A stretch of 64,000 nt of DNA from Thermoanaerobaculia bacterium (GCA_035482045.1 DATHRD010000015.1:14597-78596), one strand, 5' to 3'. Shown: positions 1 to 37,928, counted from the first letter of the stretch. The notes: generated by a model from the letters alone, not told the origin. Program-made: numbers and translations.

Positions 1-1
1 T

Positions 2-157
2 GGCAATGCCCTTCAGGCGAACGGATACGACATCCATCCACACCGTCATGTGCGCGACCAGCTCGATGATCGAATGAACGTTCGGAAGAGGATGGGCGTG
101 GGCCTGTTCGTCCGTCACGTTGTCGAGAAGAGGACGGATGGCGACGCCGGTCCATGA
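2..157 (+). CDS. 3-prime end of an unidentified upstream CDS (partial; start lies outside the window)
   Basis: Open frame from the window edge ending ...VVEKRTDGDAGP with TGA at 155-157. The stop overlaps the ATG at 154 in an ATGA arrangement. No family recognised. Confidence 0.2.
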   Translation, partial: GNALQANGYDIHPHRHVRDQLDDRMNVRKRMGVGLFVRHVVEKRTDGDAGP

Positions 158-261
158 TGGTCCACCCCAGGCCCGGTTCAATTGGTCGAGAATGCGTTCG
201 ATCGCTCGCATGGACGGCGATTCTGCTACATTCGCGCCCCAACGCAAATCGAGGAGCGTCG

Positions 262-1050
262 ATGAGTTACGTCGTAGGTGAGTGGCTGAATCTCGCCGTC
301 CGCTGGACGCACGTCTTCGCGGCGATCATGTGGGTCGGGCAGACGTATTTCTTCACCTGGCTCGACCACACCTTCCAGGGAGAGAAGCAGGTCTGGATGG
401 TGCACAGCGGCGGTTTCTACATCGTCGACAAACAGAAGCGACCGGAACTGCTGAACCAGACGCTGCACTGGTTCAAATGGGAGGCGTTCTTCACGCTCGT
501 GTCGGGCTTTCTGCTGCTCATCCTCGTCTACTACGGCGGGGGCATCATGGTCGACGAAAGCGTCCTGAAGATCACGGCGTGGCAGGCGGCCGGACTCAGT
601 CTGGTCCTCATCGCGGCCTGCTGGTTCCTGTACGACTTTCTCTGGATCTCGCCGCTGCGAAGGTACGAGGTGGCGGGGACAATCGTCTCGTACCTGCTCC
701 TCGTCGGGGCCATCGTCGGTTCCACGCACCTCTTCTCCTCGCGGGCGGCATATATGCAGATCGGCGCCACGCTCGGCACGTTCATGGCGTTGAACGTCTG
801 GGTGCGCATCCTTCCGGCGCAGCGGCAGCTCATCGCGGCGGTGAAGGCCGGCGGTGAGCCGGACATGCGCCTGGCCGACCTCGCCAAGCAGCGCTCGAAG
901 CAGAACACGTTCATCGTCCTTCCCGTCGTCTTCATCATGATCAGCAGTCACTTCCCCGTCGCCACCTACGGCAGTCAGTACAACTGGCTCGTGCTGGCGG
1001 TGCTCGTGCTGGTGGGGTGGGGTGTAGCGAAGGTCATTCGTACGCGGTAG
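262..1050 (+). CDS. DUF989 / urate-oxidase-N-like polytopic membrane protein (PuuD membrane-domain-like, no cytochrome c domain seen)
   Basis: ORF 154..1050. Hydrophobic protein begins MSYVVGEWLNLAVRWTHVFAAIMWVGQTYFF at internal ATG 262, preceded by GAGGAG. Several predicted TM helices. Sits in a purine-catabolism neighbourhood. Confidence 0.5.
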   Translation: MSYVVGEWLNLAVRWTHVFAAIMWVGQTYFFTWLDHTFQGEKQVWMVHSGGFYIVDKQKRPELLNQTLHWFKWEAFFTLVSGFLLLILVYYGGGIMVDESVLKITAWQAAGLSLVLIAACWFLYDFLWISPLRRYEVAGTIVSYLLLVGAIVGSTHLFSSRAAYMQIGATLGTFMALNVWVRILPAQRQLIAAVKAGGEPDMRLADLAKQRSKQNTFIVLPVVFIMISSHFPVATYGSQYNWLVLAVLVLVGWGVAKVIRTR

Positions 1051-1145
1051 CGCGGTAGCGCGGTCGCGGGGTTGCGCGGTCTCGCGGTTTTCAACACCCG
1101 AGACCCCGAAACCGCGAGACCGCGAAACCGCGAAACCGCACACAG
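1045..1145. repeat. GC-rich palindromic intergenic element of the GCGGTCTCGCGG / CCGCGAGACCGC family
   Basis: gcggtagcgcggtagcgcggtcgcggggttgcgcggtctcgcggtttt...gaaaccgcgagaccgcgaaaccgcgaaaccgc. Inverted arms with internal short direct repeats. Confidence 0.7.
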
Positions 1146-1153
1146 GAGCTCAT

Positions 1154-2482
1154 TTGAAACGCACTCTCTCCGACAACGACATTCGCTCCGCCGCGGCGAA
1201 GCTCGATCCTGCTCTCACCAGATTCATGGCTCGCTTCCCGGAAGACTCAGGAGCCCGGCAGCCGGTGCACACGGTTTATGGCGGGGCACATCTCTTCAAG
1301 AGCGACACGACGCAGAAACTCGGCGTGCTGGCGCTGCGGGCTCTCGATGAGTACGGACCGGACGCGGCCACGCTTGGGAACGCCATCGGGATCGACCCGC
1401 GCTTCCAGGACGTCGTCTACGCGCGCGTCCTGGAGAAGCTCCGCCGCGAACCGGTCGAGGATTTCCGCATCGATTTCGAGGACGGCTACGGCAACCGCGC
1501 CGATGAGGAGGAGGACGGCCACGCCGCCGCTGCCGCGCACGAGGTTGCGGCGGGGATGAAGAACGGAACGCTGCCTCCCTTCATCGGCATTCGCATCAAA
1601 CAGTTCTCTCAGGAGCTGATGCCGCGTTCGATCCGCACGCTCGATATCTTCGTCTCGACGCTGCTCGATGACGCGGGTCTGCTGCCCCCCAACTTTGTCG
1701 TGACTCTGCCGAAGATCCAGTTGCCGCACCAGGTCACGGCGATGGCCGATCTTCTCGACGCCATGGAACCGAAGCTCGGCCTGGCGCATCACGCGCTCCG
1801 CTTCGAGTTCATGATCGAGACGACCCAGGCCATCCTGAGCGAGAACGGCGTCTCCAACCTGCCGCTCTTTCTCGACGCCGCGCGCGGGCGGGCCGTGGCC
1901 GCGCACTTCGGCACGTACGACTACACGGCGAGCTGCAACATCACCGCGGAGCATCAGCGGATGGACCACCCCGCCTGCGACTTCGCCCGCCACATGATGC
2001 AGGTGGCCTACGCTGGGACAGGTCTCTGGTTGTCGGATGGCGCCACGAACATCATGCCGATCGCGCCGCATCGCGTCACGCTCACAGCGCGGCAAATCGA
2101 GGAGAACCGCTCGGTCGTCCACCGCGCCTGGCGATTGCACGCCGATCACATCCGGAACTCGCTCATCAACGCGTACTACCAGGGATGGGACCTCAATCCG
2201 GCGCAGCTTCCGACGCGGTATGCCGCCGTCTACTCGTTTTTCCTGGAAGGCTTGCAGGCGGCCACTGATCGTTTACACAACTTCATCGAAAAGGCTGGCC
2301 AAGCCACCCTCGTCGGCGATGTTTTCGACGATGCCGCCACCGGACAGGGACTGCTCAACTACTTCCTCCGCGCGCTCAACTGCGGCGCCATCACGGAAGA
2401 GGAAGCGCTCGCCACGGGTCTGACTCTCGACGAGCTTCGCAGCCGCAGCTTCGTGAAGATCATGAAGGGGCGGAGGAAATGA
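1154..2482 (+). CDS. HpcH/HpaI/CitE-like aldolase-lyase family protein
   Basis: TTG start with AGGAG 5 nt upstream. Motifs RIDFEDGYG (DxEDA-like metal site) and FEFMIETTQAI (mIET motif) typical of the CitE/HpcH fold. Function in this locus unknown. Confidence 0.5.
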   Translation: MKRTLSDNDIRSAAAKLDPALTRFMARFPEDSGARQPVHTVYGGAHLFKSDTTQKLGVLALRALDEYGPDAATLGNAIGIDPRFQDVVYARVLEKLRREPVEDFRIDFEDGYGNRADEEEDGHAAAAAHEVAAGMKNGTLPPFIGIRIKQFSQELMPRSIRTLDIFVSTLLDDAGLLPPNFVVTLPKIQLPHQVTAMADLLDAMEPKLGLAHHALRFEFMIETTQAILSENGVSNLPLFLDAARGRAVAAHFGTYDYTASCNITAEHQRMDHPACDFARHMMQVAYAGTGLWLSDGATNIMPIAPHRVTLTARQIEENRSVVHRAWRLHADHIRNSLINAYYQGWDLNPAQLPTRYAAVYSFFLEGLQAATDRLHNFIEKAGQATLVGDVFDDAATGQGLLNYFLRALNCGAITEEEALATGLTLDELRSRSFVKIMKGRRK

Positions 2483-2490
2483 CCGCTCGT

Positions 2491-2841
2491 CTAACTTCCT
2501 CGATATGTTGAATATCCGAAGGGGCTGAGAAGCAACGGCACGTGAAAGTGCTGTGCCCCTTCGCTCACAATGAACTCGATCACCACCCGCGGAAAGAAAC
2601 CCTCGGGGTTGTAGGAGCCGGTATCGAACGAGAGCCGATACCTGCCGGCCTCCGGCATTTCGTCAGCGAGTTTCAGCCGTCCGCCGGCGTCCGTCGAACC
2701 GGTCGCGACGATCACCCATCCTTCGCGATCCATCTGGGGCAGGCGTGCTTCGGCCATATATGGACCGTGGCTCAGCGTGACCGCCAGGCCCGCTGCCGGT
2801 AGTCCCTTTGCGGTGTCGAGTACATGAGTCGAGATACCCAT
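2491..2841 (-). CDS. uraH: 5-hydroxyisourate hydrolase (transthyretin-like)
   Basis: MGISTHVLDTAKGLPAAG ... C-terminal YRGS signature. GGAGAC upstream of ATG 2841. Confidence 0.85.
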   Translation of the reverse strand: MGISTHVLDTAKGLPAAGLAVTLSHGPYMAEARLPQMDREGWVIVATGSTDAGGRLKLADEMPEAGRYRLSFDTGSYNPEGFFPRVVIEFIVSEGAQHFHVPLLLSPFGYSTYRGS

Positions 2842-2923
2842 TGTTGTCTCCACTCGGCGGCAAGACGCCGCCGAGCCAGCCGGCGGGACCCTTCGGCTCC
2901 GCTCAGGGCAGGCGCCAGCGCTC

Positions 2924-4411
2924 CTACCCTACCAACTTCATCAGCCGTAGCTTTGTGATCTTCATCTGCTCCTCGGCGGCGAGGCGCAGTTCGTCTTCAG
3001 GCGAATTCTCCAGCCGTTGCCAGGCCATGGCCAGCATCTCATCGGCGCTGCGGCCGGTGGCGCAGACGATGTAGATGTATCCGAAGCGCGCCTCGTACTC
3101 GCGATTCGCCGCTGCCAGTGCGTCCATGCTCTCGCTCGACGCCGAGGCGGTTCCCGACTGCTCCTGCTGTTCCCATCGTGAACCGGACCCGTCGCCGATG
3201 CGCGGATGTGCGGCGAAGGCTTCGCGCCAGTCGTCAGGCTTCAACGCGTGCCAGATCTGCTCGGCCTGGTGAATGAGATCGCTCCAGGCCGGGAACGGAC
3301 GCGCCCCGGTCATCCGCCGCACCCACTCGGTTGAGCCGCAGCAGTTCCTGAGCTGCATGGCCGCGAGCTCGTCCGTCAACGTATTGACGTACCTGACCAC
3401 AGCTTCGCCGCGGCCTTCCTCGGTGGCCACGCCGTGCACGCGCAGCCGGCTGACGCCGCCGTCAGGGAAGACATTGAGCCGCAGGTGCGTCACCGGCCCG
3501 TTCTGTGCCAGCTCGTCGATGAAGATGTGACGGGTATGGCCTTGCAGCTTCGTGCGCGGCAGTACCTCGAACCACTCAGCGTCGATGAGCGCCGCTCCCG
3601 CGGCGGCAAACGCGCGGGTGCCGTCGATCGAGCAGGTGTCTGGGTAGTTGCCTTTGAAATGGTTGGTGTCGATCTCGACACGCCGTATCAGCCCCTCGGC
3701 GGCGAGCTGCACGATGACCCAGTCGTTCCCCGGACCGCGCCGCCGCTTCGTCTCCCACCCATCGCTCATGTTGACGGCGCGGTCCGGCATGATCAAGTTG
3801 TGCTTCGGTCCGAAGAACATGTCGCTGCAGGCCAGCACGTCGCCGCCGTGCTCCGCCGCCGCGAGGTCGGTCTCGATGGACAGCCCGCCTTCACGCCGCC
3901 ACTCGGGGACGACCTGGCCGTGCACACGGAGCCGCGCTACGCCACCGTCGGGATAAATGTGGAGCCGCAGATGGGTGAAGGCGTACGGCGTGTCGACCGC
4001 AAAAGGGTTCTCGCTGTCACCTTTCAGTTCGGACTTCGGAAGGATCTCGATCCAGTTCGCCGCCAGAAGCGCCTCAACGTCGCTTTCTGGCGGAGTTGCA
4101 CACGCTTCGATGGAGCAATGCGACGGATAGTTGCCGCGAAAGAAAGCCGTATCGACGACGACCCCGCGAATCACACCGCGAAGGCCGAGGCGGATGATGG
4201 CGAAGTCATGGCCGGGAGTGCGCTTGCGGCGGCTTTCCCATCCATCCATCCACTTTCCGCGGTCTGTGTACTCGTATTCCTTCCACACCGGCTTCGCGGG
4301 GCGAAGCAGGTTCTCCTTCTCCGCGAAGTAATCGTCGGTGGCATAGAGCACCGATCCGCCGAGGCGCTCGGAGGCTAGGTCCAGCAGCTCTTGAAAATCG
4401 GTTTTGCTCAT
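2924..4411 (-). CDS. bifunctional allantoicase (two allantoicase repeats) fused to a C-terminal OHCU decarboxylase domain
   Basis: Two allantoicase repeats (KWMDGWESRRKR ... DGWETKRRRGPGNDW). C-terminal AFAAHPRIGD...FGYIYIVCATGRSADEML is OHCU decarboxylase-like. Start taken at MSKTDF (4411). The in-frame upstream ATG at 4477 lies inside a palindromic repeat. Confidence 0.75.
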   Translation of the reverse strand: MSKTDFQELLDLASERLGGSVLYATDDYFAEKENLLRPAKPVWKEYEYTDRGKWMDGWESRRKRTPGHDFAIIRLGLRGVIRGVVVDTAFFRGNYPSHCSIEACATPPESDVEALLAANWIEILPKSELKGDSENPFAVDTPYAFTHLRLHIYPDGGVARLRVHGQVVPEWRREGGLSIETDLAAAEHGGDVLACSDMFFGPKHNLIMPDRAVNMSDGWETKRRRGPGNDWVIVQLAAEGLIRRVEIDTNHFKGNYPDTCSIDGTRAFAAAGAALIDAEWFEVLPRTKLQGHTRHIFIDELAQNGPVTHLRLNVFPDGGVSRLRVHGVATEEGRGEAVVRYVNTLTDELAAMQLRNCCGSTEWVRRMTGARPFPAWSDLIHQAEQIWHALKPDDWREAFAAHPRIGDGSGSRWEQQEQSGTASASSESMDALAAANREYEARFGYIYIVCATGRSADEMLAMAWQRLENSPEDELRLAAEEQMKITKLRLMKLVG

Positions 4412-4515
4412 GAACGAACCGAGACGAATGTTGAATGTTGAACGTTGAGTGTTAAATGTTGAATGAAGGTCAGCCACTCAACATTCACCACTGAACATTC
4501 AACATTCAACATTCG
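4405..4515. repeat. imperfect long inverted repeat built from tandem AATGTTG heptamers, AT-rich relative to the rest of the window
   Basis: acgaatgttgaatgttgaacgttgagtgttaaatgttgaatg ... cactcaacattcaccactgaacattcaacattcaacattcgt. Overlaps the 3-prime end of allantoinase and the 5-prime region of the allantoicase fusion gene. Confidence 0.8.
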
Positions 4516-5878
4516 TTCTCCGAACCCACTCCCCAATCGCATTGCCAAGATGCCGCCCATCCTCCCACACCTTGTGGCCACGGACATACGTCGCTCGGAC
4601 GACGCCGGTGAGCGTCTCGCCGGCATACGGCGTGACCTTGTGCCGATGTTGAACGAGCTCCTCTCGAACGACGAAATGCGCATCCGGATCGAAGACGACG
4701 ATGTCGGCGTCGAAGCCGGCGGCCAGCTTTCCTTTGCGGTCGCCGAGTCCTGCCAGCGTTGCCGGGCCGGTCGTCATCAGATGGACAATCTGCTCGAACG
4801 CAATGCCGCGCTTCTTCGCCTCGGTCCAGACAATCGGCAGGCCGAACTGCAGCGAGGCGATTCCGCCCCAGGCCCGCGCGATGTCGACTGCGTCCATCCG
4901 TTTCAGCTCCGGTGTACACGGGGAGTGATCGCTGACGACGGCGGTGAAGAGTCCCTCGCGGAGGCCGCGCCACAGCTCCTCGCGGTTGGCGTGACCGCGG
5001 ATCGGCGGGGCGCACTTGAACTCCGTCGCTCCGTCCGGCACCTGCTCGGCGTCGAAGTAGAGATAATGCGGCGTGGTCTCGGCAGTCAGCGGCCCGTGCG
5101 CGTCGCGGGCGCGGCGAAGCGCATCGAGCCCGTTCGCCGAGGAGAGGTGGACGATGTGGGCATGCGTCCCAGTCTTCCGCGCCAGCGCGTAGACGAGTGC
5201 GATCGCTTCATCCTCGGCTTCGGCGGGACGTGTGGCGAGGTAGCTCGCATACGAACGATCGTGGCCCGCCGGCGCGTGGATGTGCTCCGGCAATTCCGCG
5301 TGGACCAGCAGAGGCGCGCCGGTGTCCCGCAACGCGTTCAATGCCTCTTCCAGTCCGCGAGCATCGAGATGGCCAAACTCCGGCACTCCCGAGTCGACGA
5401 GAAAGCATTTGAAGCCGCACGCTCCGGCTTCGAGCATGGCCCGAAGCTGTCCCGAGTTTCCCGGCACCGCGCCGCCCCACAACGCCACGTCGACGCGACA
5501 CTTCCCATCGAGAGCGCGCACCTTCGTCTCCAGCGCCGCAACGGATGTCGTCGGAGGGATCGAGTTCAAGGGCATATCGACGACCGTGGTCACGCCACCG
5601 GCCGCCGCCGCCCGTGTGGCCGTCTCGAACCCTTCCCATTCCGTCCGCCCCGGCTCGTTGACGTGTACGTGCGAGTCCACGATGCCGGGCATGAGGGTGA
5701 GACCGCCGTAGTCTTCGAACGGGGCTCCCGCGGGGACGTCGTCGAATTCGCTGACGCGCTCGATCACTTGCCCGTTGACGTGAATCGTCGACGGCCGGAT
5801 ACCATGCGGCGTGACGACGCTACGGCTGCGGAGGATCACGTTTCGGATGATAGCGGAGGCAATGTATGTCTCGAACAC
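4499..5878 (-). CDS. allB: allantoinase
   Basis: GIVDSHVHVNEPGRTEWEGFETATRAAAAGGVTTVVDMPLNSIPPTT and WGGAVPGN motifs of cyclic-amidohydrolase allantoinase. Confidence 0.85.
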   Translation of the reverse strand: MFETYIASAIIRNVILRSRSVVTPHGIRPSTIHVNGQVIERVSEFDDVPAGAPFEDYGGLTLMPGIVDSHVHVNEPGRTEWEGFETATRAAAAGGVTTVVDMPLNSIPPTTSVAALETKVRALDGKCRVDVALWGGAVPGNSGQLRAMLEAGACGFKCFLVDSGVPEFGHLDARGLEEALNALRDTGAPLLVHAELPEHIHAPAGHDRSYASYLATRPAEAEDEAIALVYALARKTGTHAHIVHLSSANGLDALRRARDAHGPLTAETTPHYLYFDAEQVPDGATEFKCAPPIRGHANREELWRGLREGLFTAVVSDHSPCTPELKRMDAVDIARAWGGIASLQFGLPIVWTEAKKRGIAFEQIVHLMTTGPATLAGLGDRKGKLAAGFDADIVVFDPDAHFVVREELVQHRHKVTPYAGETLTGVVRATYVRGHKVWEDGRHLGNAIGEWVRRTNVEC

Positions 5879-5912
5879 GCGCGCGGTGGGTGTGTTGACT
5901 TGTCATCCACTC

Positions 5913-6154
5913 TGTCATCCTGAGCCTGCCGGAGCCGCTGAGCGAGCGCAGCGCGAGTGCGGCGGAGGACGGCGAAGGATCTCCAGATGCGCTGCTTGGG
6001 GCAGAAGCACAGATGGGGTTTTGTCGTTGATCTTCCTCACAAAAACCACAGTTTCGCTACTGCCCCAGGCGCTGCCACTGGAGATCCTTCGCCGTCCTCC
6101 GCCGCTCTTCGCTCGCTACGCTCGCTCAGCGGCTGCGGCAGTCTCAGGATGACA
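5913..6154. mobile_element. MITE-like non-autonomous element, copy 1: about 74-bp near-perfect terminal inverted repeats with TGTCATCCTGAG termini
   Basis: Left arm tgtcatcctgagcctgccggagccgctgagcgagcgcagcgcgagtgcggcggaggacggcgaaggatctccag. Right arm ctggagatccttcgccgtcctccgccgctcttcgctcgctacgctcgctcagcggctgcggcagtctcaggatgaca. Central region of about 90 bp. A partial direct copy of the terminus (tgtcatcc) lies 12 bp upstream. Confidence 0.6.
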
Positions 6155-6194
6155 AATTGCCAATAGGGTTTCTTCACGGAGACCTGCGTTTCCT

Positions 6195-8540
6195 TCACGG
6201 CTGCGGTGCCGCCACTTCCCTCGCATCGCTTCCCCGTGCCGCCCGCCGGTACGCCGTCATCCGCGTCAAAATCTCTTCCCCCGTTGCCGGCGCGTTCAGT
6301 TTCGGGATCTCACCACCGCTGAGGTACGACAGCGCGTTCTTCACAGCCATCCAGACCGAGATGGCCAAGACGAGCGGGGGCTCGCCGGTCGCTTTGCTGG
6401 AGCGGATGTTGAGCGCGTTCTCCGCGTCGATCCAGTCGACATTGAAAACAGGCGGGACATCCTGGATGTTCGGGATCTTGTACGTCGTCGGCGAGTGCGA
6501 GAGGAGGTTGCCCTTGGCGTCGTAGCGCAACTCTTCGTTCGTGAGCCAGCCCATGCCCTGAATGAATGCACCGGTGATCTGGCCGCGGTCGATGCCGGGG
6601 TTGATCGGCTTGCCGATGTCCATCAGCAGGTCGGAGCGACGCACCTGCATCATGCCGGTGAAGCGATCGATCTCGACCTCGGAGATCGCCGTGCCCTGGG
6701 TGAAGTAGAGGAACGGCGTGCCGCGGCCCTTGTCCGCATCCCAGTCCAACCCCTGCGTCGCATAGAAACCGCGTTCGCCGAGGGAAACGCGCTCGATGTG
6801 ACACATCTTCACGAGAGCCGCAAAGGTGAGGCGCGGCTCCGGCACCCGGCGATCGAAGACGTCGCCGTCCTCGAAGACCACGTCATCGACGGATGGTGCC
6901 ACGGAGCCGGCGCGGCCGAAGTGCTCCGCGGCGACGGCCGCCATGCGTGATCGAATCTTCCGGCAGGCGTCGGCGGCGGCGCTGCCGTTGAGGTCCGCGC
7001 CGCTGGAGGCCGCCGTGGCCGAGGTGTTGTTGTTCTTCTCCGTCGACGTCGTCATCAGAAGGACGCGCTCGGCATCAATCCCCAGCTCATCGGCCACGAT
7101 CTGACGGATCTTCGTGTTGACGCCTTGACCCATCTCTGTCGCGCCGGTCGAGACCTGCACGGAGCCGTCGAGGTAGACGTTTACGAGGGCGTTGGCCTGG
7201 TTGAGGAACTTGGTGTTGAACGAGATGCCGAACTTCACCGCGGTACAGGCGATGCCGCGAAGATGGGTGCGCGAGGCCGCGTTGAAGCTGGCCACCTCGG
7301 CGGCACGCTTCGCGTAGTGGCCGCGTTTCGCGATCTCGTCGAAAAGATGAGGCAGGTGATTGTTGCGGACGACTTGACCGTAGGGCGTGATGTTGCGGTC
7401 GTCGATGCCGTAGCAGTTGCGGCGGCGGACTTCCAGCGGATCCATCTTCAGAATGACCGCGATCTCTTCCAGGATGTTCTCGATCGTGGCAATTCCCTGC
7501 GGTCCGCCGAAGCCGCGGAAGGCGGTGTTCGGCGGGTAATTGGTGCGACAAACCGTGCCGCGAATCAAGACGTCGGGCAGGTAATAGGCGTTGTCGGCGT
7601 GCGTCATGGCGCGCCCCAGGACCGCCGTCGAGAGGTCGGCGAAGGCGCCGCCGTCCGAGTAGAAATCGATGCGTGCGCCGGTGATCACGCCGTCGTCGTC
7701 GAACGCGACTCTGTAGTCGTTCTGGAACGGATGTCGCCCGCCGGTGACGCACATGTCGTCGTCTTTCGTGTAGGCGATGCGCGCCGGGCGCTTGAGCTTG
7801 TGTGCCACGAGTGCCGCAATCGCGGCAGGGTGCGTGGCCTGACACTCTTTCCCGCCAAAGCCGCCGCCCATCCTCTTGGTGACCACCGTTACCTTGTTGA
7901 TCGGCAGCCCGAGCAGATGAGCGATGACGTCCTGAACCTCGGAAGGGTTCTGCGTCGATGAGTGGACCGTGAGCTGATCGAATTCACCAGGCACGGCGAT
8001 CGCTGCCTGCGACTCAAGGTAGAAGTGATCCTGGCCGCCGCTGATGAACGTCCCCTCGAGAATGTGAGCGGCGGAAGCGAAGGCCGCCTCGACGTCGCCG
8101 CGCTGGATGGTCATCGTCCTGCCGATGAACAGGCAGCGCCGCTTCGCTTCGTCGATCGTGAACACCGGCTCCAGTTCTTCGATATCGACCCCGATGGTCG
8201 CCTTGGCCGCGCGGATGGCCGCGCGCGACTCGGCGGCGATGACGACGATCGGGTGCCCGATAAACGACGCCACGTCTTCGGCCAGGAGCAGTTCGTCCTG
8301 AATGATCGGCCCGAATAGGTTGTGGTGAAGATCGCGATAGGTGAAGAGTCCTGCGACGCCTGGCACCCTCCGCGCCGCATCGAGCTCGATCGAGCGGATC
8401 CGTCCATGGGCGACCGGCGACCAGACGAAGTCGACGATCAGCTCCCCGCGCAGCGGCGCCATGTCGTCGACGTACACCGACTCGCCGCTCACATGGCCGA
8501 CCGCCGAATCATGAGGGATGTTCTTTCCGACCGAGGACAT
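6195..8540 (-). CDS. xdhB: xanthine dehydrogenase molybdopterin-binding large subunit
   Basis: 781 aa. Ald_Xan_dh-like sequence throughout (e.g. FGGKE, molybdopterin-binding regions). Confidence 0.85.
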   Translation of the reverse strand: MSSVGKNIPHDSAVGHVSGESVYVDDMAPLRGELIVDFVWSPVAHGRIRSIELDAARRVPGVAGLFTYRDLHHNLFGPIIQDELLLAEDVASFIGHPIVVIAAESRAAIRAAKATIGVDIEELEPVFTIDEAKRRCLFIGRTMTIQRGDVEAAFASAAHILEGTFISGGQDHFYLESQAAIAVPGEFDQLTVHSSTQNPSEVQDVIAHLLGLPINKVTVVTKRMGGGFGGKECQATHPAAIAALVAHKLKRPARIAYTKDDDMCVTGGRHPFQNDYRVAFDDDGVITGARIDFYSDGGAFADLSTAVLGRAMTHADNAYYLPDVLIRGTVCRTNYPPNTAFRGFGGPQGIATIENILEEIAVILKMDPLEVRRRNCYGIDDRNITPYGQVVRNNHLPHLFDEIAKRGHYAKRAAEVASFNAASRTHLRGIACTAVKFGISFNTKFLNQANALVNVYLDGSVQVSTGATEMGQGVNTKIRQIVADELGIDAERVLLMTTSTEKNNNTSATAASSGADLNGSAAADACRKIRSRMAAVAAEHFGRAGSVAPSVDDVVFEDGDVFDRRVPEPRLTFAALVKMCHIERVSLGERGFYATQGLDWDADKGRGTPFLYFTQGTAISEVEIDRFTGMMQVRRSDLLMDIGKPINPGIDRGQITGAFIQGMGWLTNEELRYDAKGNLLSHSPTTYKIPNIQDVPPVFNVDWIDAENALNIRSSKATGEPPLVLAISVWMAVKNALSYLSGGEIPKLNAPATGEEILTRMTAYRRAARGSDAREVAAPQP

Positions 8541-8610
8541 GGAATTTGTAAGTATACGGCGGCGACAATGCTATATTAGCCGTACCTAAACAAACGCGAA
8601 GGCAATCTCT
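8541..8610. promoter_or_regulatory. AT-rich divergent promoter region between xdhB and the secreted-protein gene
   Basis: ttgtaagtatacggcggcgacaatgctatattag: TTGTAA and TGcTATATT-like boxes in an otherwise high-GC context. Spacing is not ideal, so treated as a low-confidence call. Confidence 0.3.
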
Positions 8611-10596: not shown

Positions 10597-10694
10597 GCTT
10601 TGGTGCCGGCTGAATGGGCTTGACGAAGGCGAGCCATGGCGGTTCCACGACACGAAACCGCGTCAACGATGTCAGCGTGGCTACGTCGTGACCG

Positions 10695-12164
10695 CTACAC
10701 CCGCGCGAAGCGACGTTCCGCCGCCTCTTCGAACACCTCGTACCAGAACTTCGCCATGATGTTCTCTGCGAGTTGCAGCCTGTAGTCGGCGGAGCCCCGC
10801 ACGTCGCTGATCGGCTTGATCTCGTCGCGGGCGATGCGGCCGGCGTGCTCGAAGGTATCAAGGGTGGCCGTCTTGCCGGCCAGGAAGGCTTCCGTGTGCG
10901 GGAGGCGGATGACGGTAGGGGCGACGCCGCCGTAGGCGATGATGGCGTGGTCGATCCGATCGCCGCTGATTGCCAATCGAATGGCGGCGGTGAAGGCGGA
11001 GATGTCGAGATCCTTGCGTCGCGAGACCTTGTAGAGCTTGAGCGTGTCGCGGACGATGGGGATGCGAACGCTGGTGATGATCTCGTCGGGATGGAGATCG
11101 AACTTCCGGTATCCGAGGTAGAAGCGGTCGATCGGAACGGTGCGAGTGCCGCCGTTCAGCGCGAGGGTGGCGCCGGCGACGAAGAGATAAGGCAACGTGT
11201 CGGCGATTGGAGAGCCGTTGGCGATGTTGCCGACCAGCGTTCCGGCGTTCTTGATCTGAGGTGAGCCGAACACGGCCAGGATGCCCGCCAGCTCGGGGAT
11301 GCGATCGGCGATGAACGTCTCGAAGTCGGCGAGCGTCGCATTCGCGCCGGCGACGATCGCGCCGTCTTCTTCGCGCAACTCGTTGAGCGATGCGATCTTC
11401 GACAGTGACAGCATCGCCGGCGCGGCGAGGTTCCGCTTGTTGACCCAGACGCCGACGTCGGTCCCCCCCTGCACGATCGTGCATCCGGGATGGCCGCGTT
11501 TGAAGGCGATTGCCTCGTCGAGCGTGGCCAGCGCGCAGAAGGAGCCGACCTCCACGGAATCGCTTGCATCCGGAAGATCGGGATAGCGGTCGCGCATCTT
11601 GCTGATCGGCGCGCCGTCGATCGCCAGCGCGGCCTTGATGATCGGCTCGTAGCCGGTGCAGCGGCAGAGGTTTCCGGTCAGCCCGTCACGTACCTGTTTT
11701 TCATCGACCCGGTCACAGCGCTCGAACATTCCGGCCATGGCCATGACGAAGCCGGGCGTGCAGTAGCCGCACTGCGCGCCGTGGCAACGAACCATGGCCT
11801 CCTGAACAGGATGGAGAACGTTTTTACGCGGAGACGCGGAGACGCGGAGGGAGTCCTCTTTTCTCCGCGTCTCCGCGCCTCCGCGTGAAACGGTTTTCGT
11901 TTCGCTCAATCCTTCCACCGTGACGATCGATGATCCATCGAGCTGCGCGAGCGAAAGGATGCAGGCGTTGACCGGACGATAGTCGGCATCGGCCGTGCGC
12001 CGGGTCAATACCGTGCAGGCGCCGCAATCCCCTTCCTCGCAGACGATCTTCGTCCCAGTGGCAGCGACATCCTGTCGAAGATAGTTCGCGAGGGTCTCGA
12101 AGGCGACATCGCCGGCGATGCGATGTTCACGGCCGTTGATGTGGATGAGGATGTGGTCGCGCAC
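10695..12164 (-). CDS. xdhA: xanthine dehydrogenase small subunit (2Fe-2S and FAD-binding)
   Basis: EEGDCGACTV and CGYCTPGFVM ferredoxin motifs followed by an FAD-binding domain. Contains an unusual in-frame palindromic segment (separate feature). Confidence 0.85.
   Translation of the reverse strand: MRDHILIHINGREHRIAGDVAFETLANYLRQDVAATGTKIVCEEGDCGACTVLTRRTADADYRPVNACILSLAQLDGSSIVTVEGLSETKTVSRGGAETRRKEDSLRVSASPRKNVLHPVQEAMVRCHGAQCGYCTPGFVMAMAGMFERCDRVDEKQVRDGLTGNLCRCTGYEPIIKAALAIDGAPISKMRDRYPDLPDASDSVEVGSFCALATLDEAIAFKRGHPGCTIVQGGTDVGVWVNKRNLAAPAMLSLSKIASLNELREEDGAIVAGANATLADFETFIADRIPELAGILAVFGSPQIKNAGTLVGNIANGSPIADTLPYLFVAGATLALNGGTRTVPIDRFYLGYRKFDLHPDEIITSVRIPIVRDTLKLYKVSRRKDLDISAFTAAIRLAISGDRIDHAIIAYGGVAPTVIRLPHTEAFLAGKTATLDTFEHAGRIARDEIKPISDVRGSADYRLQLAENIMAKFWYEVFEEAAERRFARV
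11826..11888. repeat. near-perfect 24-bp-stem hairpin embedded in frame in the xdhA interdomain linker
   Basis: cgcggagacgcggagacgcggaggga gtcctctttt ctccgcgtctccgcgcctccgcg. Encodes the low-complexity segment VSRGGAETRRKEDSLRVSASPRKN. Confidence 0.8.
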
Positions 12165-12166
12165 GT

Positions 12167-13498
12167 CTACAGCCGCACGATCCCGTTATACGTCTCCGGC
12201 CGCCTGTCCCGATAGAACTGCCACGTATTGCGGACTTCGCGGATCTTGTCCATATCCAGATCCGCGGTCACGAGCGCGTCCGCATCGCGAGGGCCCACGG
12301 CCAGCATCTGGCCACGCGGATCGCAGAAGTAGCTCTGGCCGTAGAACTCGCCGATGTTCCATGGCGCCTCGTAACCAACGCGATTGATGGCGCCGACGAA
12401 GTAGCCGTTGGCCACCGCGTGCGCCGGCTGCTCGAGCTTCCAGAGGTACTCCGAGAGACCGGCTACCGTCGCGGAAGGGTTCATCACGATTTCCGCTCCG
12501 GCCAGGCCCAACTCCCGGGCGCCCTCGGGGAAGTGGCGGTCGTAGCAGATGTAGACGCCGACCTTGGCGTAGGCCGTATCGAACACCGGGTACCCGAGGT
12601 TGCCGGGACGGAAGTAGAACTTCTCCCAGAAACCGGGCGCGACGTGCGGAATGTGGTTCTTACGGTACTTGCCGAGGTACGTGCCGTCGGCGTCGATCAC
12701 GGCGGCGGTGTTGTAGTAGACGCCGGTCGACTCTTCCTCATACAGCGGCACGATGATGACCATGCTGTATTTCTTGGCGTACTCCTGCATCAGCTTCGTG
12801 GTCGGACCGTCCGGGATCCTCTCCACGGAGTCGTACCAACGCGTGCTCTGCTCGGCGCAGAAGTAAGGGCCGGTGAAGATCTCCTGCATGCAGAGGACCT
12901 GAACGCCCTCGGCGCCGGCCTGGTCGACATACTTGAGCGTGCGCTCAGTCTGGGCCTCGCGGATCTTCTCGAGCGATTCGCTCGTGTCACAGGCCAGGGA
13001 CGTCTGAATCAAACCACCTTTAACGATTCGGGACATGTGTTTTCTCTCCGATTGGGGCTCGCGGATTATACCGGCACGGCCGGTAGCGTTGGTCGCCCGA
13101 GGCTCCGCCACAACGTGCGCGTAATCAACGTTTTCGCGCGGAGCTTCGTCGGCGACGATGATCGTCGGTTGTGGCGGCTCCGGGGGCGGAGGTGGGGGTG
13201 CTGGCTGCGGCACCGGCTCCGGTTCAATGATCGGCAACGGTTCCGGATCGGCGTCCGGCAACGGCTCGGGATCTTCGGGAGGAGGTTCTGCGTAGGTCGG
13301 ACTCTCAGTCCGACCGGGCGGTGGTACGACCTCGGACGCGCGGTCGGATTGGAGGTCGGACTGGAGAGTCCGACCTCCGTTCGTCCGACCTACGTTGGCC
13401 TCGTCTGCCTTCTCGCGTTCCGCGTTCTTCCGCCGCCATGACCCGCCGGCGATGATGATGACGACTGCAACAAGGATGAGGATGGTGATGTAGGTCAT
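12167..13498 (-). CDS. beta-ureidopropionase-like CN-hydrolase (N-carbamoyl amidohydrolase), possibly with an N-terminal membrane anchor and Pro-rich linker
   Basis: Catalytic domain motifs: YRKNHIP, PVFDT, ICYDRHFP, GAEIVMNPSAT. Two candidate starts. ATG 13498 overlaps the NCS1 stop (ATGA) and gives a TM helix plus Pro-rich region. ATG 13036 is preceded by TATAAT and GGAGAG. Confidence 0.75.
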   Translation of the reverse strand: MTYITILILVAVVIIIAGGSWRRKNAEREKADEANVGRTNGGRTLQSDLQSDRASEVVPPPGRTESPTYAEPPPEDPEPLPDADPEPLPIIEPEPVPQPAPPPPPPEPPQPTIIVADEAPRENVDYAHVVAEPRATNATGRAGIIREPQSERKHMSRIVKGGLIQTSLACDTSESLEKIREAQTERTLKYVDQAGAEGVQVLCMQEIFTGPYFCAEQSTRWYDSVERIPDGPTTKLMQEYAKKYSMVIIVPLYEEESTGVYYNTAAVIDADGTYLGKYRKNHIPHVAPGFWEKFYFRPGNLGYPVFDTAYAKVGVYICYDRHFPEGARELGLAGAEIVMNPSATVAGLSEYLWKLEQPAHAVANGYFVGAINRVGYEAPWNIGEFYGQSYFCDPRGQMLAVGPRDADALVTADLDMDKIREVRNTWQFYRDRRPETYNGIVRL

Positions 13499-14994
13499 GC
13501 GGCGGAGGGAACCTCGACGATGCCGCTCGGGCGGAAGGTTTTCATCAACAGAAGGTGGGTGATCGCGGCGACGCCGAAGCCGACGAACCAGGCATAGTCG
13601 TACAGCGGGCGCAGCGCGGGAACGACCAGACCGATCCAGGCCGCGGTGCAGCCGAGGAGTGTGGCGAGGACAGCGCGCCAGTTCCAGCCGCCCGCGTATC
13701 GGTACGCTCCGTCGATTCGATAGAGATCACCGAGCACCAGCAGCTTTTTCCGCACGATCCAGTAGTCGACGATCATCACGCCGCCGATCGAGCCGAGCCC
13801 GCCCGAGTAGCCGAGGAGCCACGTGAAGATGTAACCCGAGGGATCCGCCAGCAGACGCCAGGGCTGCATGGCGATCGCCAGCAGGCCGGTGATCAGGCCG
13901 CCGGTGCGGAAGGAGATCCATTTCGGGAATGCGTTCGCGAAGTCGTTCGCCGGCGAGACCACGTTGGCGGCGATGTTCACGGAAAGCGTGGCGATGACGA
14001 CGGTGAACATCGAGATGGCCACGACCAGAGGCTGCTTGAACTGCGCCACGAGCTTGAGTGGATCCCACAGCTCGTTGATGCTCATCGTCGGATAGATGAC
14101 GACTGCAGCGGAGGTGATGAGCACCCCCATTGCCGCGAAGATGGTCATCGTCGTCGGCAGTGCCACCGTCTGACCGATGGCCTGCTCGCGCTGGCTGCGG
14201 CCGAAACGGGTGAAGTCGGGCATGTTCAGCGACAGCGTGGCCCAGAAGCCGATCATCGCCGTCAACGAGGGGATGAAGATCGGACGGAACTGTGCCCAGG
14301 TCTCGAACTTCCCCTTCTCGTGCAGAAGGTAGCCGAGGCCGTGCGCTCGCCAGACCGCCCATCCCAGAAGGAAGGCCGTCATGACGAGGACAAACGGAGC
14401 CGCCCAGTTCTCAAAGCGGCGAAGCAGGTCCATGCCGCGGTAAATGATCAGAATGTTGAGCAGCCAGAAGAGGAGAAACGAGATCCATTCGGTGGTCGGA
14501 TGCCCAACGAACCTGCCGAGGAGGGTGGGCCAGGAGGGAAGGATCGAGGTGAAGAAAGTGTGGAGCGCTTCCCCGCCGATCCAGGCCTGAATCCCGAACC
14601 AGCCGCAGGCGACGATGGCGCGCATGAGCGCCGGAAGGTTCGAGCCGATCGTCCCGTAACTGGCCCTGGCGAAGACCGGAAACGGAATGCCGTACTTGGT
14701 TCCGGCGTGTGAGTTGAGGAGGATGGGGATGAGGACGATGGTGTTGCCCACGAGGATCGTCAGCAGCGCCTGCCACCAGTTCATCCCCGCGCCGATGAGT
14801 CCCGACGACATCATGTAAGTGGGGATGCAGTGCGCCATGGCGATCCAGAGCGCGGCGTAGTTGTAGGTGGTCCAGTTCCGCCGTGCCACCGGCACCGGCG
14901 CGAGGTCGTGGTTGTAGAGAGGGCTGGTGCGAATCCCCTCCTCGGAGCGAAGCTCGACACGTCCGTCTTCGTGTTGGATGACTGCGTCAGTCAT
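13495..14994 (-). CDS. NCS1 family nucleobase/hydantoin/allantoin:cation symporter
   Basis: 12-TM protein with typical NCS1 sequence. Start taken at MTDAVIQ (14994). Confidence 0.8.
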   Translation of the reverse strand: MTDAVIQHEDGRVELRSEEGIRTSPLYNHDLAPVPVARRNWTTYNYAALWIAMAHCIPTYMMSSGLIGAGMNWWQALLTILVGNTIVLIPILLNSHAGTKYGIPFPVFARASYGTIGSNLPALMRAIVACGWFGIQAWIGGEALHTFFTSILPSWPTLLGRFVGHPTTEWISFLLFWLLNILIIYRGMDLLRRFENWAAPFVLVMTAFLLGWAVWRAHGLGYLLHEKGKFETWAQFRPIFIPSLTAMIGFWATLSLNMPDFTRFGRSQREQAIGQTVALPTTMTIFAAMGVLITSAAVVIYPTMSINELWDPLKLVAQFKQPLVVAISMFTVVIATLSVNIAANVVSPANDFANAFPKWISFRTGGLITGLLAIAMQPWRLLADPSGYIFTWLLGYSGGLGSIGGVMIVDYWIVRKKLLVLGDLYRIDGAYRYAGGWNWRAVLATLLGCTAAWIGLVVPALRPLYDYAWFVGFGVAAITHLLLMKTFRPSGIVEVPSAA

Positions 14995-15169
14995 TGATTG
15001 TCTCCGGATTCCCAAAATGACGGGTGAGGCGCATTGTGCCACACCGATCCGGCAGGACACCGAAGCCCGATGGATGACTTGACCGACTTGGGCGAGCGAT
15101 CACTGGAACTCGTCAATGGATCGTCAAATATCGCAAATCATGGATGTTACAGCGCCTTCGTGATTGATG

Positions 15170-15415
15170 ACAACACCATCGAGAATGGCGATGTCGCCAA
15201 GAAAGATGGCGATGTTGCCATCGAACATGGCGATGTTGCCTTCGAAAATGGCGATATCGCCCCCAAAGATGGTGATTTGCCAAAAAAGATGGCGATGTCG
15301 CCCCCAAAGACGGCGATGTTGCCATCAAGGTTGATGATGTTGCCAAAAAAATGATGATGTCGCCAAGAAAAATGGCGAGGTTGTCATCCGAAGTGAGGAC
15401 GTTGCCATCACTCTC
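15170..15415. repeat. tandem array of about 11 degenerate 21-bp units, each containing the palindrome ATGGCGATGTTGCCAT
   Basis: gatggcgatgttgccatcgaac / atggcgatgttgccttcgaaa / atggcgatatcgcccccaaa ... Low-GC relative to the flanks. Lies upstream of the NCS1 permease gene and downstream of the dihydropyrimidinase gene. Confidence 0.8.
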
Positions 15416-15482
15416 ACAGAGTTAAGCGTCCAGGTTCTGGACACCCTCGGGTCTCGAGGCTTGCGTGTCCCGTCCTCCGGCG

Positions 15483-16868
15483 CTACCTCGGAGAAAACGC
15501 CTGTCCCCGTTTGAGGAACTGCCCCTTCCCAGCCCGTCCGACGTACTTTCCCTCTTCGATCACCAGCTCGCCACGCGAAAGCACCGTCTTGGTTACCCCG
15601 CGAACCCGGCGCCCCTCGTAGCAGGAGTAGTCGACGTTCATGTGGTGGGTCCTGGCGCTGATGGTCATCTCTTCGTCCGGATCGAAGATGACGATGTCGG
15701 CGTCGCTGCCGACGGCGATCGTTCCTTTGCGTGGGAAGAGGCCGAAGATCTTCGCGGCCGCGGTCGACGTGATCTCGACGAAACGGTTGAGCGAGATGCG
15801 CCCCTCGGCCACGCCGCCGTCGTAGACGAGCGACATCCGGTTCTCCACGCCCGGCCCGCCGTTGGGGATCTTGGAGAAGTCGTTCTTGCCGAGCTCCTTC
15901 TGCTCTTTCATGCAGAACGGGCAGTGGTCGGTCGAGACGACCTGCAGGTCGTTGAACTTCAGCCCGCGCCACAGCTTGTCCTGGTTCCACTTATCGCGAA
16001 TGGGCGGCGTCATCACGTACTTGGCGCCTTCGAATCCGGGCTGTTCGTAGACGCTGTAGTCGAGGAAGAGGTACTGCGGGCAGGTCTCGGCGAAGGCGTT
16101 GATGCCCATATCGCGCGCCCGCGTCACTTCCTGCAGCGAGTCGTCGCAACTGAGATGGACGATGTAGACCGGCGCGTCCGCCATCTCGGCGAGAGCGATG
16201 GCGCGATGAACGCCCTCCGCCTCCGCTTTGGTAGGTCTCGTCAGGGCGTGGTATTTCGGCGCCGTCTTCCCCTCGGCCAGCGCCTTCTTGACGATGGCAT
16301 CGATGACGACGCCGTTCTCGGCGTGCATGCAGATCAACCCGCCGTTCTCACCCGCCGTCCCCATGGCCTTGAAGATCGTAGCGTCGTCGACGAGGAACAC
16401 TCCCGGATAGGCCATGAAGAGCTTGAAGCTCGACACCCCTTCGTCGATCATCCCCTTCATCTCCGGCAACCGCTCGTCCGGCAGATCGGTACAAATGAGA
16501 TGGAACCCGTAGTCGATCGACGTCTTTCCCTCGGCCTTGGCGTGCCATACGTCGACCGCCTGCCGCAGCGACTGTCCCTTGTACTGCACGGCGAAGTCGA
16601 TGATCGTCGTCGTCCCCCCGTGCGCCGCCGCGATCGTGCCGGTCTCGAACGTGTCGGATGCCGAGGTTCCACCGAACGGCAGTTCCATGTGCGTGTGCGG
16701 ATCGATCCCGCCGGGGATGACGAGCCGCCCCCTGGCATCGATGACCTTGTCGGCCTGAGCGTCGATCGACTTCCCGATCATGGCGATCGTCCCGTCCTCG
16801 ATGAGGATGTCCGCGCGGTAGTCGTCGACGGCGGTGACGATGCGACCGTTCTTGATGAGGGTGGTCAT
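15483..16868 (-). CDS. dihydropyrimidinase / D-hydantoinase
   Basis: MTTLIKNGRIVTA...IPGGIDPHTHM. Cyclic amidohydrolase, 461 aa. Confidence 0.85.
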   Translation of the reverse strand: MTTLIKNGRIVTAVDDYRADILIEDGTIAMIGKSIDAQADKVIDARGRLVIPGGIDPHTHMELPFGGTSASDTFETGTIAAAHGGTTTIIDFAVQYKGQSLRQAVDVWHAKAEGKTSIDYGFHLICTDLPDERLPEMKGMIDEGVSSFKLFMAYPGVFLVDDATIFKAMGTAGENGGLICMHAENGVVIDAIVKKALAEGKTAPKYHALTRPTKAEAEGVHRAIALAEMADAPVYIVHLSCDDSLQEVTRARDMGINAFAETCPQYLFLDYSVYEQPGFEGAKYVMTPPIRDKWNQDKLWRGLKFNDLQVVSTDHCPFCMKEQKELGKNDFSKIPNGGPGVENRMSLVYDGGVAEGRISLNRFVEITSTAAAKIFGLFPRKGTIAVGSDADIVIFDPDEEMTISARTHHMNVDYSCYEGRRVRGVTKTVLSRGELVIEEGKYVGRAGKGQFLKRGQAFSPR

Positions 16869-17200: not shown

Positions 17201-17501
17201 AGGCGGCGGAATACTGCACCTCGGCCGAATGAACGACTTGGTCGCGGAAATAGCGGCTCAGCTCTGCCGGTGTTCTGAGGTCAACCTTTCGCCCAAGCCG
17301 CTCACCGAGCTCGATCTCCATGCCCGCCATGGCGATGTATCCCACCCGCGCCCCTTCTTCGAACTCCACCAGCACATCGACATCGCTCTCCGGCCGAAAA
17401 CGGTCTGTCAGCACGGAGCCGAAAAGAGCCAGCTTGCGAATGTGGTTTCGCTTGCAGAACTCCGAAACGAACGCCGGATCGAGCTGAATATGCGCCGTCA
17501 T
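17199..17501 (-). CDS. mntA: MntA-like minimal nucleotidyltransferase antitoxin
   Basis: LFGSVLTDRFRPESDVDVLVEF (GS...DxD nucleotidyltransferase motif). Alternative starts up to 17552. Confidence 0.7.
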   Translation of the reverse strand: MTAHIQLDPAFVSEFCKRNHIRKLALFGSVLTDRFRPESDVDVLVEFEEGARVGYIAMAGMEIELGERLGRKVDLRTPAELSRYFRDQVVHSAEVQYSAA

Positions 17502-18853: not shown

Positions 18854-18879
18854 GAGGTAGGTGTTTGAATTCTAGCACG

Positions 18880-37926: not shown

Positions 37927-37928
37927 TC

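Follow-up and report, generated by a model that had tools for sequence, protein, structure and literature searches.

The route from urate to allantoin, and from allantoin to glyoxylate, is a textbook pathway that has been heavily mined by comparative genomics, and its most recent addition is PuuD. This enzyme was described as an eight-helix DUF989 domain (Nout-Cout) joined to a periplasmic cytochrome c domain with an invariant CxxCH motif and a distal Met (Doniselli et al. 2015, PMC4562309). In that work the cytochrome c domain was called invariant and probably essential, and the short DUF989 proteins had four helices (I, II, V and VI) and unrelated gene contexts (PMC4562309). Here, we analyzed 64,000 nucleotides of DNA (63% GC) from a Thermoanaerobaculia bacterium (GCA_035482045.1, DATHRD010000015.1:14597-78596), and this whole stretch is referred to as the window. 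At its left end, this soil acidobacterial DNA carries a purine-catabolic locus in which a 262-residue DUF989 protein is encoded beside a protein of the DUF6986 family. Judged from sequence and gene context, the former is probably the urate oxidase of the locus, and the latter most likely acts at the glyoxylate end of the pathway.

The short DUF989 protein and the oxidation of urate

The DUF989 gene starts at ATG 262. Its product shows 100% identity to P0121, listed by NCBI as 'urate hydroxylase PuuD' and encoded in a Thermoanaerobaculia (Acidobacteriota) metagenome-assembled genome (MAG). The protein matched PF06181 (Urate_ox_N, formerly DUF989) with 256.7 bits (cut-off 26.9), and the match spans positions 3-265 of the 295 in the profile. 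A long PuuD from Azospirillum covers positions 2-294, and the window protein lacks the last 30 positions of the profile. Alignment with long forms showed that it ends right after helix VII, where the long forms add helix VIII, a linker and the CxxCH domain. No CxxCH was found in its translation, which stops at residue 262, 104 bp before the next gene. The AlphaFold2 (AF2) model displayed seven long helices, with a predicted local distance difference test (pLDDT) of 72 and a predicted template modeling score (pTM) of 0.72. Foldseek found no PDB structure that matched this model with E below 0.26, and no NCBIfam model matched either the DUF989 or the DUF6986 protein.

Across short and long DUF989 forms, 48 positions are at least 93% conserved. 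They include, in the 262-residue numbering, His17, His48 (HSGGFY), His69 (HWFKWE) and His230 (NHFP), together with Arg14, Arg161, Arg211, Asp125 and Asn178. From the positive-inside rule, the conserved HSGGFY and HWFKWE loops and the C-terminus look cytoplasmic. Each of the 120 closest database relatives has PF06181 as its only domain, and their length is nearly always 257-289 residues (one entry has 383). Rather than decay, the short form suggests that the 'helix VIII plus cytochrome' module was cleanly lost, or was never gained.

Pfam scans of the window open reading frames (ORFs) in 154-55423 detected no uricase, HpxO or AllA (ureidoglycolate lyase). Hidden Markov models (HMMs) of the three enzymes gave no match in six-frame translations of the whole window and of L001, a contig that carries this locus and reaches 10 kb further upstream than the window (74 kb covered in all). 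The uricase HMM was built from 21 related-locus sequences and the AllA HMM from three proteobacterial sequences only. The original prediction had noted 5-hydroxyisourate (HIU) hydrolase and OHCU (2-oxo-4-hydroxy-4-carboxy-5-ureidoimidazoline) decarboxylase without a cofactor-less uricase or HpxO. The first two are indeed present (PF00576/TIGR02962, and PF09349 as the C-terminal half of an allantoicase fusion), and the scans and HMMs confirmed the lack of the latter two in the window and the 10 kb upstream. It had also described the DUF989 protein as only the membrane part of a PuuD-type enzyme with no haem c motif, which agrees with the PF06181 match. Neither a canonical uricase just upstream of the window nor an overlooked CxxCH came to light. 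Its statement that the pathway lacks a recognizable uricase is right for PF01014 and HpxO but needs amendment, since the DUF989 protein is itself a probable urate oxidase. Finally, the extent that it gave to the locus, 154-16868, does take in the urate and allantoin genes, but the start belongs at 262 and 12167-16868 is a hydantoinase module.

We then compared 160 loci: a genome sample of 80 species-representative loci anchored on DUF6986 and a metagenome sample of 80 loci anchored on allantoicase. Reference proteins were mapped onto both samples, with a reach of ±10 kb around each locus. Most of these loci are MAG contigs, many of them truncated, and gene calls outside the window are longest-ORF approximations that sometimes picked the antisense frame. 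Uricase in the survey was confirmed as PF01014 (4e-62). Of the genome loci, 21 encoded uricase, 30 DUF989 and none both (one-sided Fisher p ~7e-6, shared ancestry ignored). The corresponding numbers for the metagenome loci were 15, 30 and none (p ~3e-4 by the same test, with the same disregard of ancestry). When only loci bearing HIU hydrolase (HIUase) were counted, the p values, again ignoring ancestry, were 1e-7 for the genome sample and 8e-6 for the metagenome sample. In total, 36 canonical uricases and 60 DUF989 genes never co-occurred. Moreover, comparison of L019, L043, L050 and L081 with L055, L062 and L071 showed that the two occupy the same slot of a syntenic operon, XdhBA-AllB-Alc-OHCUdc-HIUase-[Uox or DUF989]-DUF6986. 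This pattern is a classic analogous gene displacement.

Most DUF989 genes of the genome sample resemble that of the window: 22 of the 30 encode proteins of 259-288 residues with no CxxCH. Five others, from 'Deltaproteobacteria' MAGs, Gemmatimonadaceae and Flavobacteriales, encode proteins of 395-409 residues with CxxCH. The remainder comprise one apparently frameshifted gene, one cut by a contig end and one (L076) with a non-haem C-terminal domain. The cytochrome domain was detected by tblastn, backed by ORF length and the CxxCH search.

Two observations made on other loci concern this step. L052 and L068, both Melainabacteria MAGs, contain a compact four-gene operon, AllB-OHCUdc-HIUase-DUF6986 (7666-11455), and L052 has no uricase, DUF989 or allantoicase within 10 kb. 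In L076 (MAG 'Proteobacteria bacterium', RFNO01000106.1), a 527-residue DUF989 protein is encoded ~5 kb upstream of DUF6986. It has helix VIII followed by a C-terminal domain of ~230 residues with no CxxCH and no Pfam match. This domain contains CDLHPWM, a sequence similar to the C-x2-H-x2-M type-1 copper loop of amicyanin; possibly, a fused cupredoxin has taken the place of the cytochrome here.

We propose the short protein as the probable urate oxidase because it keeps the 48 conserved PuuD residues, because it replaces uricase in the same slot, and because deletion of the long PuuD of A. fabrum abolishes urate use (PMC4562309). The 262-residue, seven-helix protein would be the catalytic core of PuuD, its HSGGFY and HWFKWE loops and its transmembrane His, Arg and Asn residues being intact. 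Since transmembrane helix VIII and the periplasmic cytochrome c are missing, an unfused acceptor would be required, and the electrons from urate would leave through a separately encoded periplasmic carrier or the quinone pool.

Several points weigh against this assignment. In A. fabrum, both the cytochrome c domain and ccmC, a cytochrome c maturation gene, appear essential for PuuD (PMC4562309). Clustering of neighboring ORFs in 80 loci revealed no acceptor gene conserved beside short DUF989; the clusters found in at least five loci were only known pathway genes and an M49-like peptidase, with no stand-alone cytochrome or cupredoxin partner. About ten loci have HIUase beside DUF6986 but neither uricase nor DUF989 within 10 kb. 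Urate oxidases can therefore sit elsewhere, and this genome could carry one outside the 74 kb. The tests of mutual exclusion also treat loci as if they shared no ancestry. In addition, the DUF989 model is of moderate quality and has no structural relative in the PDB that would point to a cofactor site.

Some of these points favor another explanation, in which the short protein either is a decayed remnant or has an accessory or transport function, urate being oxidized by a distant enzyme or one of another type. The cytochrome domain has been reported as invariant and functionally required (PMC4562309), some ten comparable operons have no urate oxidase nearby, and no activity is on record for the DUF989 domain alone. 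A remnant, however, would hardly be expected to show the conservation found in the short clade (67-91% identity and 99 invariant columns in the clade alignment), nor to have intact ORFs across 22 species-level genomes. The strict exclusion between the short form and uricase at one and the same slot also argues against this view, as does a GC content at third codon positions of 0.85, which is typical of expressed genes here. A transport role conflicts with the finding that deletion of puuD in A. fabrum is fully rescued by a cytosolic uricase (PMC4562309). We consider this explanation unlikely, and retain the short protein as the probable urate oxidase.

The existence of a populous haem-less DUF989 clade in purine operons suggests that the catalytic unit does not inherently include the fused cytochrome, and it narrows where the active site and cofactor must lie. 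The 262-residue protein would also be a smaller subject for studies of the structure and mechanism of an H2O2-free urate oxidase, a type of enzyme of interest for hyperuricaemia therapy.

The DUF6986 protein and the fate of purine-derived glyoxylate

The protein encoded downstream of DUF989 matched PF22484 (DUF6986) over profile positions 6-408 of 408, with 615 bits against a cut-off of 27. The family comprises 2,476 clusters at 50% identity (E ≤ 1e-3), and identity across phyla in the 80 genome loci is 57-90%. The Pfam malate synthase profile MS_TIM-barrel scored below threshold (21 bits; cut-off 26.4). PF03328 (HpcH_HpaI) gave no match to the window protein at E ≤ 0.001, and it recognized the homologue P0380 with 32.6 bits (cut-off 25). 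The AF2 model (pLDDT 95.2, pTM 0.92) consists of an N-terminal helical region, a TIM barrel at about residues 103-346 and a C-terminal helical domain.

Foldseek ranked 3QQW and 3R4I first (E 5e-10, target-normalized TM-score 0.72-0.75, 16-19% identity), followed by malate synthase A, H. volcanii malate synthase, malyl-coenzyme A (malyl-CoA) lyase, CLYBL and malate synthase G. The same families were retrieved from PDB sequences by a profile search with DUF6986, the CitE-like protein 3R4I being the best match (7.6e-7). DUF6986 is too distant for any characterized family and is kin to these enzymes at the superfamily level only. The original prediction had called the protein CitE/HpcH-like, which holds for the CitE/malate synthase superfamily but misses its own family, PF22484. 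It had rightly seen in it a gene with no textbook role in purine catabolism; our literature search found no paper that mentions DUF6986 or PF22484. The name 'phosphoenolpyruvate kinase', given by NCBI to close homologues, was disregarded, as no supporting evidence was found for it.

Alignment of DUF6986 with E. coli AceB by hhalign had a probability of 91.6% (E 8e-7), indicating homology at the superfamily level only. It paired DFEDG with DFEDS, Arg147 of GIRIK with the Arg loop of AceB, and TLPK with YLPK. Also paired were Glu222 of MIET with Glu250 of LIET, Asp256 of YDY with Asp278 of WDY, and GWDL(H/N)P with TWIAHP. An FDDAAT motif (DDAAT at 392-396, including Asp393) is present in 186 of 270 family members. 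Asp393 resembles Asp447 in MEDAAT of AceB by motif alone, as this region lies outside the range of the hhalign alignment. Asp447 is the catalytic base of AceB. By alignment and motif, DUF6986 appears to keep the whole predicted catalytic apparatus of the malate synthase/malyl-CoA lyase group.

One of the paired motifs varies within the family. The window protein (residues 344-349; window 2195-2212) and 96 of its 120 closest relatives have GWDLNP, whereas the family consensus is GWDLHP, with the His at least 90% conserved in a diverse alignment. The Asn is a clade-specific change by the last barrel strand.

The gene neighborhoods tie DUF6986 to purine catabolism. Of the 80 genome loci, 56 have a purine context. 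HIUase lies within 10 kb of DUF6986 in 56 of the 80, and the counts for the other genes are 53 (OHCU decarboxylase), 48 (allantoicase), 45 (AllB) and 29 (XdhA). The hosts include Acidobacteriota, Myxococcota, 'Deltaproteobacteria', Bacteroidota (among them the cultured Flavobacterium wongokense), Gemmatimonadota, Verrucomicrobiota and Melainabacteria. Actinobacterial replicons encode more divergent homologues (36-46% identity), which occur with uricase and no DUF989. The gene order is xdhA-xdhB-xdhC-guaD-DUF6986-(ureidoglycine-aminohydrolase-like cupin) in Tsukamurella and DUF6986-Alc-PuuE, with OHCUdc-HIUase-uricase nearby, in Nocardia farcinica. In Paenarthrobacter, PuuE is divergent from DUF6986-NCS1, and in Gordonia DUF6986 lies between a PaaI thioesterase gene, which overlaps its start, and a urease operon. 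P0380 is a DUF6986::OHCU-decarboxylase fusion encoded in a translationally coupled operon, xdh...-allB-alc-[fusion]-HIUase-uricase (L178 8001-9737, L179, L180). A few DUF6986 homologues have non-purine neighbors.

Taken together, DUF6986 is found with urate/allantoin genes in at least six phyla, Actinomycetota among them. It is a general member of the urate/allantoin pathway that accompanies every urate oxidase type, and this pathway-wide association is new. A glycerate kinase near the Paenarthrobacter homologue was considered as a clue to the fate of glyoxylate and rejected, as it belongs to a tartrate cluster. Separately, a secreted Peptidase_M49-like protein (~555 residues, HExxH) is encoded as the immediate neighbor of DUF6986, ~1.2-2.3 kb downstream, in ten Pyrinomonadaceae/Blastocatellia loci (L016, L020, L022, L024, L031, L034, L037, L042, L046 and L064), seven of which have no purine genes nearby.

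The co-occurrence of DUF989 with the CitE-like gene, for which the original prediction had suggested a search, is real but not specific: the urate oxidase beside DUF6986 is uricase in 21 of the 80 loci, short DUF989 in 22 and long PuuD in 5, or there is none. Since it is found with every type, DUF6986 is not a specific partner of the haem-less DUF989. In our proposal, the two would be co-transcribed here and act independently of each other. That they form a two-component urate oxidase, with DUF6986 in the role of the missing cytochrome c, could be suggested by their adjacent, co-directional genes, separated by 104 bp in the window, and by the contigs that they share in many close relatives. 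This idea is already contradicted by the distribution, in which DUF6986 stands beside uricase, beside cytochrome-bearing PuuD and in Actinomycetota with no DUF989. Several long loci also have short DUF989 but no DUF6986 within 8 kb. Moreover, the missing domain is periplasmic, but DUF6986 has the fold of a cytosolic TIM-barrel lyase and carries no motif for a redox cofactor. We regard such a complex as highly improbable.

In DUF6986 operons, an enzyme is assigned to each of the steps that lead from xanthine to ureidoglycolate. XdhAB produces urate, and HIUase, OHCU decarboxylase, allantoinase and allantoicase convert hydroxyisourate to ureidoglycolate and urea. Beyond this point, the AllA HMM, built as described above, found nothing in the window and its upstream flank, in any of the 160 loci or in the actinobacterial loci. 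Among glyoxylate consumers, AceA, Hyi and GlxK had no match in the 160 loci, GlxR was found only in L158 and Gcl only in L066. The only AceB match falls within DUF6986 itself.

We tentatively favor a role of DUF6986 as a malate synthase or malyl-CoA lyase that condenses purine-derived glyoxylate with acetyl-CoA, although we put its chances slightly below even. This choice is made because of the known chemistry of the superfamily and the apparently intact Claisen machinery, and because many arginines are invariant and the thioesterase gene of Gordonia overlaps that of DUF6986. A further reason is a Streptomyces replicon with no DUF6986, in which allB-alc has a canonical malate synthase gene as its neighbor. 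DUF6986 would be a soluble, Mg2+-dependent enzyme of the malate synthase/malyl-CoA lyase/CitE superfamily that handles the two-carbon end product. Glyoxylate, or an alpha-hydroxy adduct, would be bound via Glu222, Asp256 and Mg2+; Arg147 would polarize the carbonyl of the partner, and Asp393 of the DDAAT loop would act as acid/base. Against this role stand the score below the Pfam malate synthase threshold and the identity of only 12-19% to any solved relative. The lack of AllA in every locus searched also counts against it, as it fits a lyase equally well.

Such a lyase, non-homologous to AllA and replacing it, would convert (S)-ureidoglycolate to glyoxylate and urea. DUF6986 is the one conserved extra gene where AllA is expected, and in Proteobacteria (Acinetobacter, Moraxella, Vibrio and Ensifer) allA is commonly the neighbor of alc. 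In addition, the Tsukamurella gene overlaps that of the ureidoglycine-aminohydrolase-like cupin by 4 bp, the Gordonia gene lies directly upstream of the urease operon, and all predicted catalytic residues are conserved. We also infer that ureidoglycolate (HOOC-CHOH-NH-CO-NH2) is near-isosteric with the malyl group of malyl-CoA (HOOC-CHOH-CH2-CO-S-). The Mg2+/Arg/Asp machinery by which malyl-CoA is split at C2-C3 could therefore also act on C2-N. However, no superfamily member is known to cleave a C-N bond, and in principle AllA could be dispensed with: (R)-ureidoglycolate is a further substrate of allantoicase (EC 3.5.3.4), and ureidoglycolate racemizes (Gravenmade 1970, cited in PMC4016543).

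The AllA search itself used only the three proteobacterial sequences, with genomes covered to ±10 kb, and a slot replacement between AllA and DUF6986 offered no contrast, since AllA was found in 0 of the 80 allantoicase-anchored metagenome loci. The invariant arginines and the Gordonia thioesterase fit a CoA substrate better. A literature search returned nothing relevant on ureidoglycolate with malyl-CoA or on allantoicase with citrate lyase beta. We regard the lyase reaction as possible but doubtful, and keep condensation of glyoxylate with acetyl-CoA as the working assignment. Were the reaction established, the outcome would be either an enzyme for the missing AllA step in Acidobacteriota and Actinomycetota, or a malate synthase of a fourth kind, one for purine-derived glyoxylate.

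It is rather improbable that the DUF989 core alone is a complete urate oxidase, feeding the quinone pool or an unfused carrier, and that DUF6986 is at the same time a ureidoglycolate lyase in place of AllA. If both were true, urate oxidation in many soil Acidobacteriota would be respiratory, H2O2-free and independent of cytochrome c. DUF6986 would then be the first C-N lyase of its superfamily, built on the malate synthase/malyl-CoA lyase scaffold and replacing AllA in at least six phyla.

Gene content of the locus and its flanks

Features of the purine-catabolic locus and the adjoining hydantoinase module in the window
Feature	Coordinates	Strand	Evidence
Short DUF989/PuuD-type membrane protein, 262 aa, seven transmembrane helices	262..1050	+	PF06181 4.1e-76
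DUF6986 protein, 442 aa, TTG start	1154..2482	+	PF22484 6.2e-185
5-Hydroxyisourate hydrolase (HIUase)	2491..2853	-	PF00576 2.7e-29; TIGR02962 101.5 bits (cut-off 87.45)
Allantoicase::OHCU decarboxylase fusion	2924..4477	-	PF03561 5.6e-103; PF09349 6.6e-43
Allantoinase AllB	4499..5878	-	TIGR03178 3e-163, 543.7 bits (cut-off 357.85)
XdhB, xanthine dehydrogenase molybdopterin subunit	6195..8540	-	TIGR02965 2e-276, above cut-off
Secreted Cys-rich ORF between xdhB and xdhA, 661 aa	8611..10596	+	gene call in L001
XdhA, xanthine dehydrogenase small (Fe-S/FAD) subunit	10695..12164	-	PF00941, PF03450, PF01799
CN-hydrolase (carbamoylase-like), 443 aa, with 180-aa N-terminal extension	12167..13498	-	PF00795 5.1e-58
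NCS1 nucleobase/allantoin/hydantoin permease	13495..15060	-	PF02133 4.8e-126
D-hydantoinase/dihydropyrimidinase	15483..16868	-	TIGR02033 1.6e-193, above cut-off

For the allantoicase fusion, TIGR02961 and TIGR03180 both scored above their cut-offs, and XdhA scored slightly under the cut-off of TIGR02963 (8e-131). In L001, the gene calls of HIUase and of the fusion correspond to 2491-2841 and 2924-4411, respectively. The last three genes of the table form a hydantoinase/carbamoylase/NCS1-permease module of the hydantoin/pyrimidine type, which is joined to the purine locus immediately downstream of xdhA and is not part of urate catabolism. With both inferred steps included, we see an evenly balanced case for the locus being a complete catabolic unit from xanthine to glyoxylate (or malate).

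The 661-residue ORF, which has a signal peptide and many cysteines, had no match in Pfam, NCBIfam or the PDB and is absent from 80 related loci. In L007, a 90%-identical relative, both xdh genes are adjacent. The ORF appears to have been inserted in this lineage only, splitting the xdh operon, and its product is probably outside the pathway. The upstream flank in L001 contains two DinB_2 genes, XdhC, glutamate dehydrogenase, aldehyde dehydrogenase, a permease and a RES/Xre pair. The two DinB_2 genes and xdhC (L001 8684-9950) are divergent from the DUF989 gene, with ~50 bp between the start codons, and the 5' end of the first gene on the DinB_2 side reaches window position ~211. DinB_2 genes were found in only one of 80 loci. 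Both they and the 661-residue protein were rejected as pathway partners, being lineage-specific.

Rfam at gathering thresholds gave no match in window 1-20000, and a promoter/terminator scan of window 1-3000 yielded nothing above shuffle expectation. Further into the window, 23379-27155 holds a cluster with a luciferase-like monooxygenase, asparaginase II and aldehyde dehydrogenase, and 37836-39868 encodes a LigB-dioxygenase::RidA fusion followed by a cyclase-family protein.

Comparison with known systems

DUF6986 shares with AceB (3CUZ) and H. volcanii malate synthase H (3OYX) the TIM-barrel core, the DFED, Arg and LPK motifs, the Glu and Asp predicted as Mg2+ ligands and, by motif match, the Asp of [DE]DAAT. 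Its size is similar to that of malate synthase isoform H. It differs from both in its low identity (12-14%), in a distinct N-terminal clasp and C-terminal domain, and in a gene context dedicated to purine catabolism. The best likeness in fold and profile is to the CitE-like proteins 3R4I (Bxe_B2899) and 3QQW (Reut_B4148), themselves uncharacterized structural-genomics proteins, to the malyl-CoA lyases 4L9Y, 5UGR and 6KKH, and to human CLYBL. Compared with CitE-like proteins and malyl-CoA lyases, DUF6986 is ~120 residues longer and has an extra N-terminal helical region, at 16-19% identity. The step of AllA (PF04115), whose gene adjoins alc in Proteobacteria, is unaccounted for in these loci, and DUF6986 occupies an AllA-like place by alc in Acidobacteriota and Nocardia. 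The fold of DUF6986 is unrelated to the cupin-like fold of AllA and there is no sequence similarity; any correspondence would be a functional analogy only.

The short DUF989 protein shares with cofactor-less uricase (PF01014) an identical operon position in sister lineages, and the two never occur together, which suggests that they serve the same pathway step. There is no homology between them: uricase is a soluble T-fold enzyme that makes H2O2, whereas DUF989 is a polytopic membrane protein. It is also distinct from the four-helix group of short DUF989 proteins (Doniselli et al. 2015), since it has seven helices and a purine context. With PuuD it shares the PF06181 domain (33-41% identity to alphaproteobacterial and Vibrio PuuD), helices I-VII, the conserved cytoplasmic loops and the same purine-catabolic context with no other urate oxidase nearby. 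It differs from PuuD in having seven helices instead of eight, helix VIII being absent, in a C-terminus predicted to be cytoplasmic, and in lacking the C-terminal cytochrome c (CxxCH...Met), as in 22 related species-level loci.

The protein is best called a cytochrome-less PuuD variant, one that departs from two defining features of PuuD, the eight helices and the cytochrome c. Our literature search found no paper that mentions a cytochrome-less PuuD. The annotation as 'PuuD' is not new, as NCBI already labels the short protein so. What is new is the contradiction: a haem-less DUF989 protein in purine operons runs counter to the invariant cytochrome published for purine-linked DUF989.

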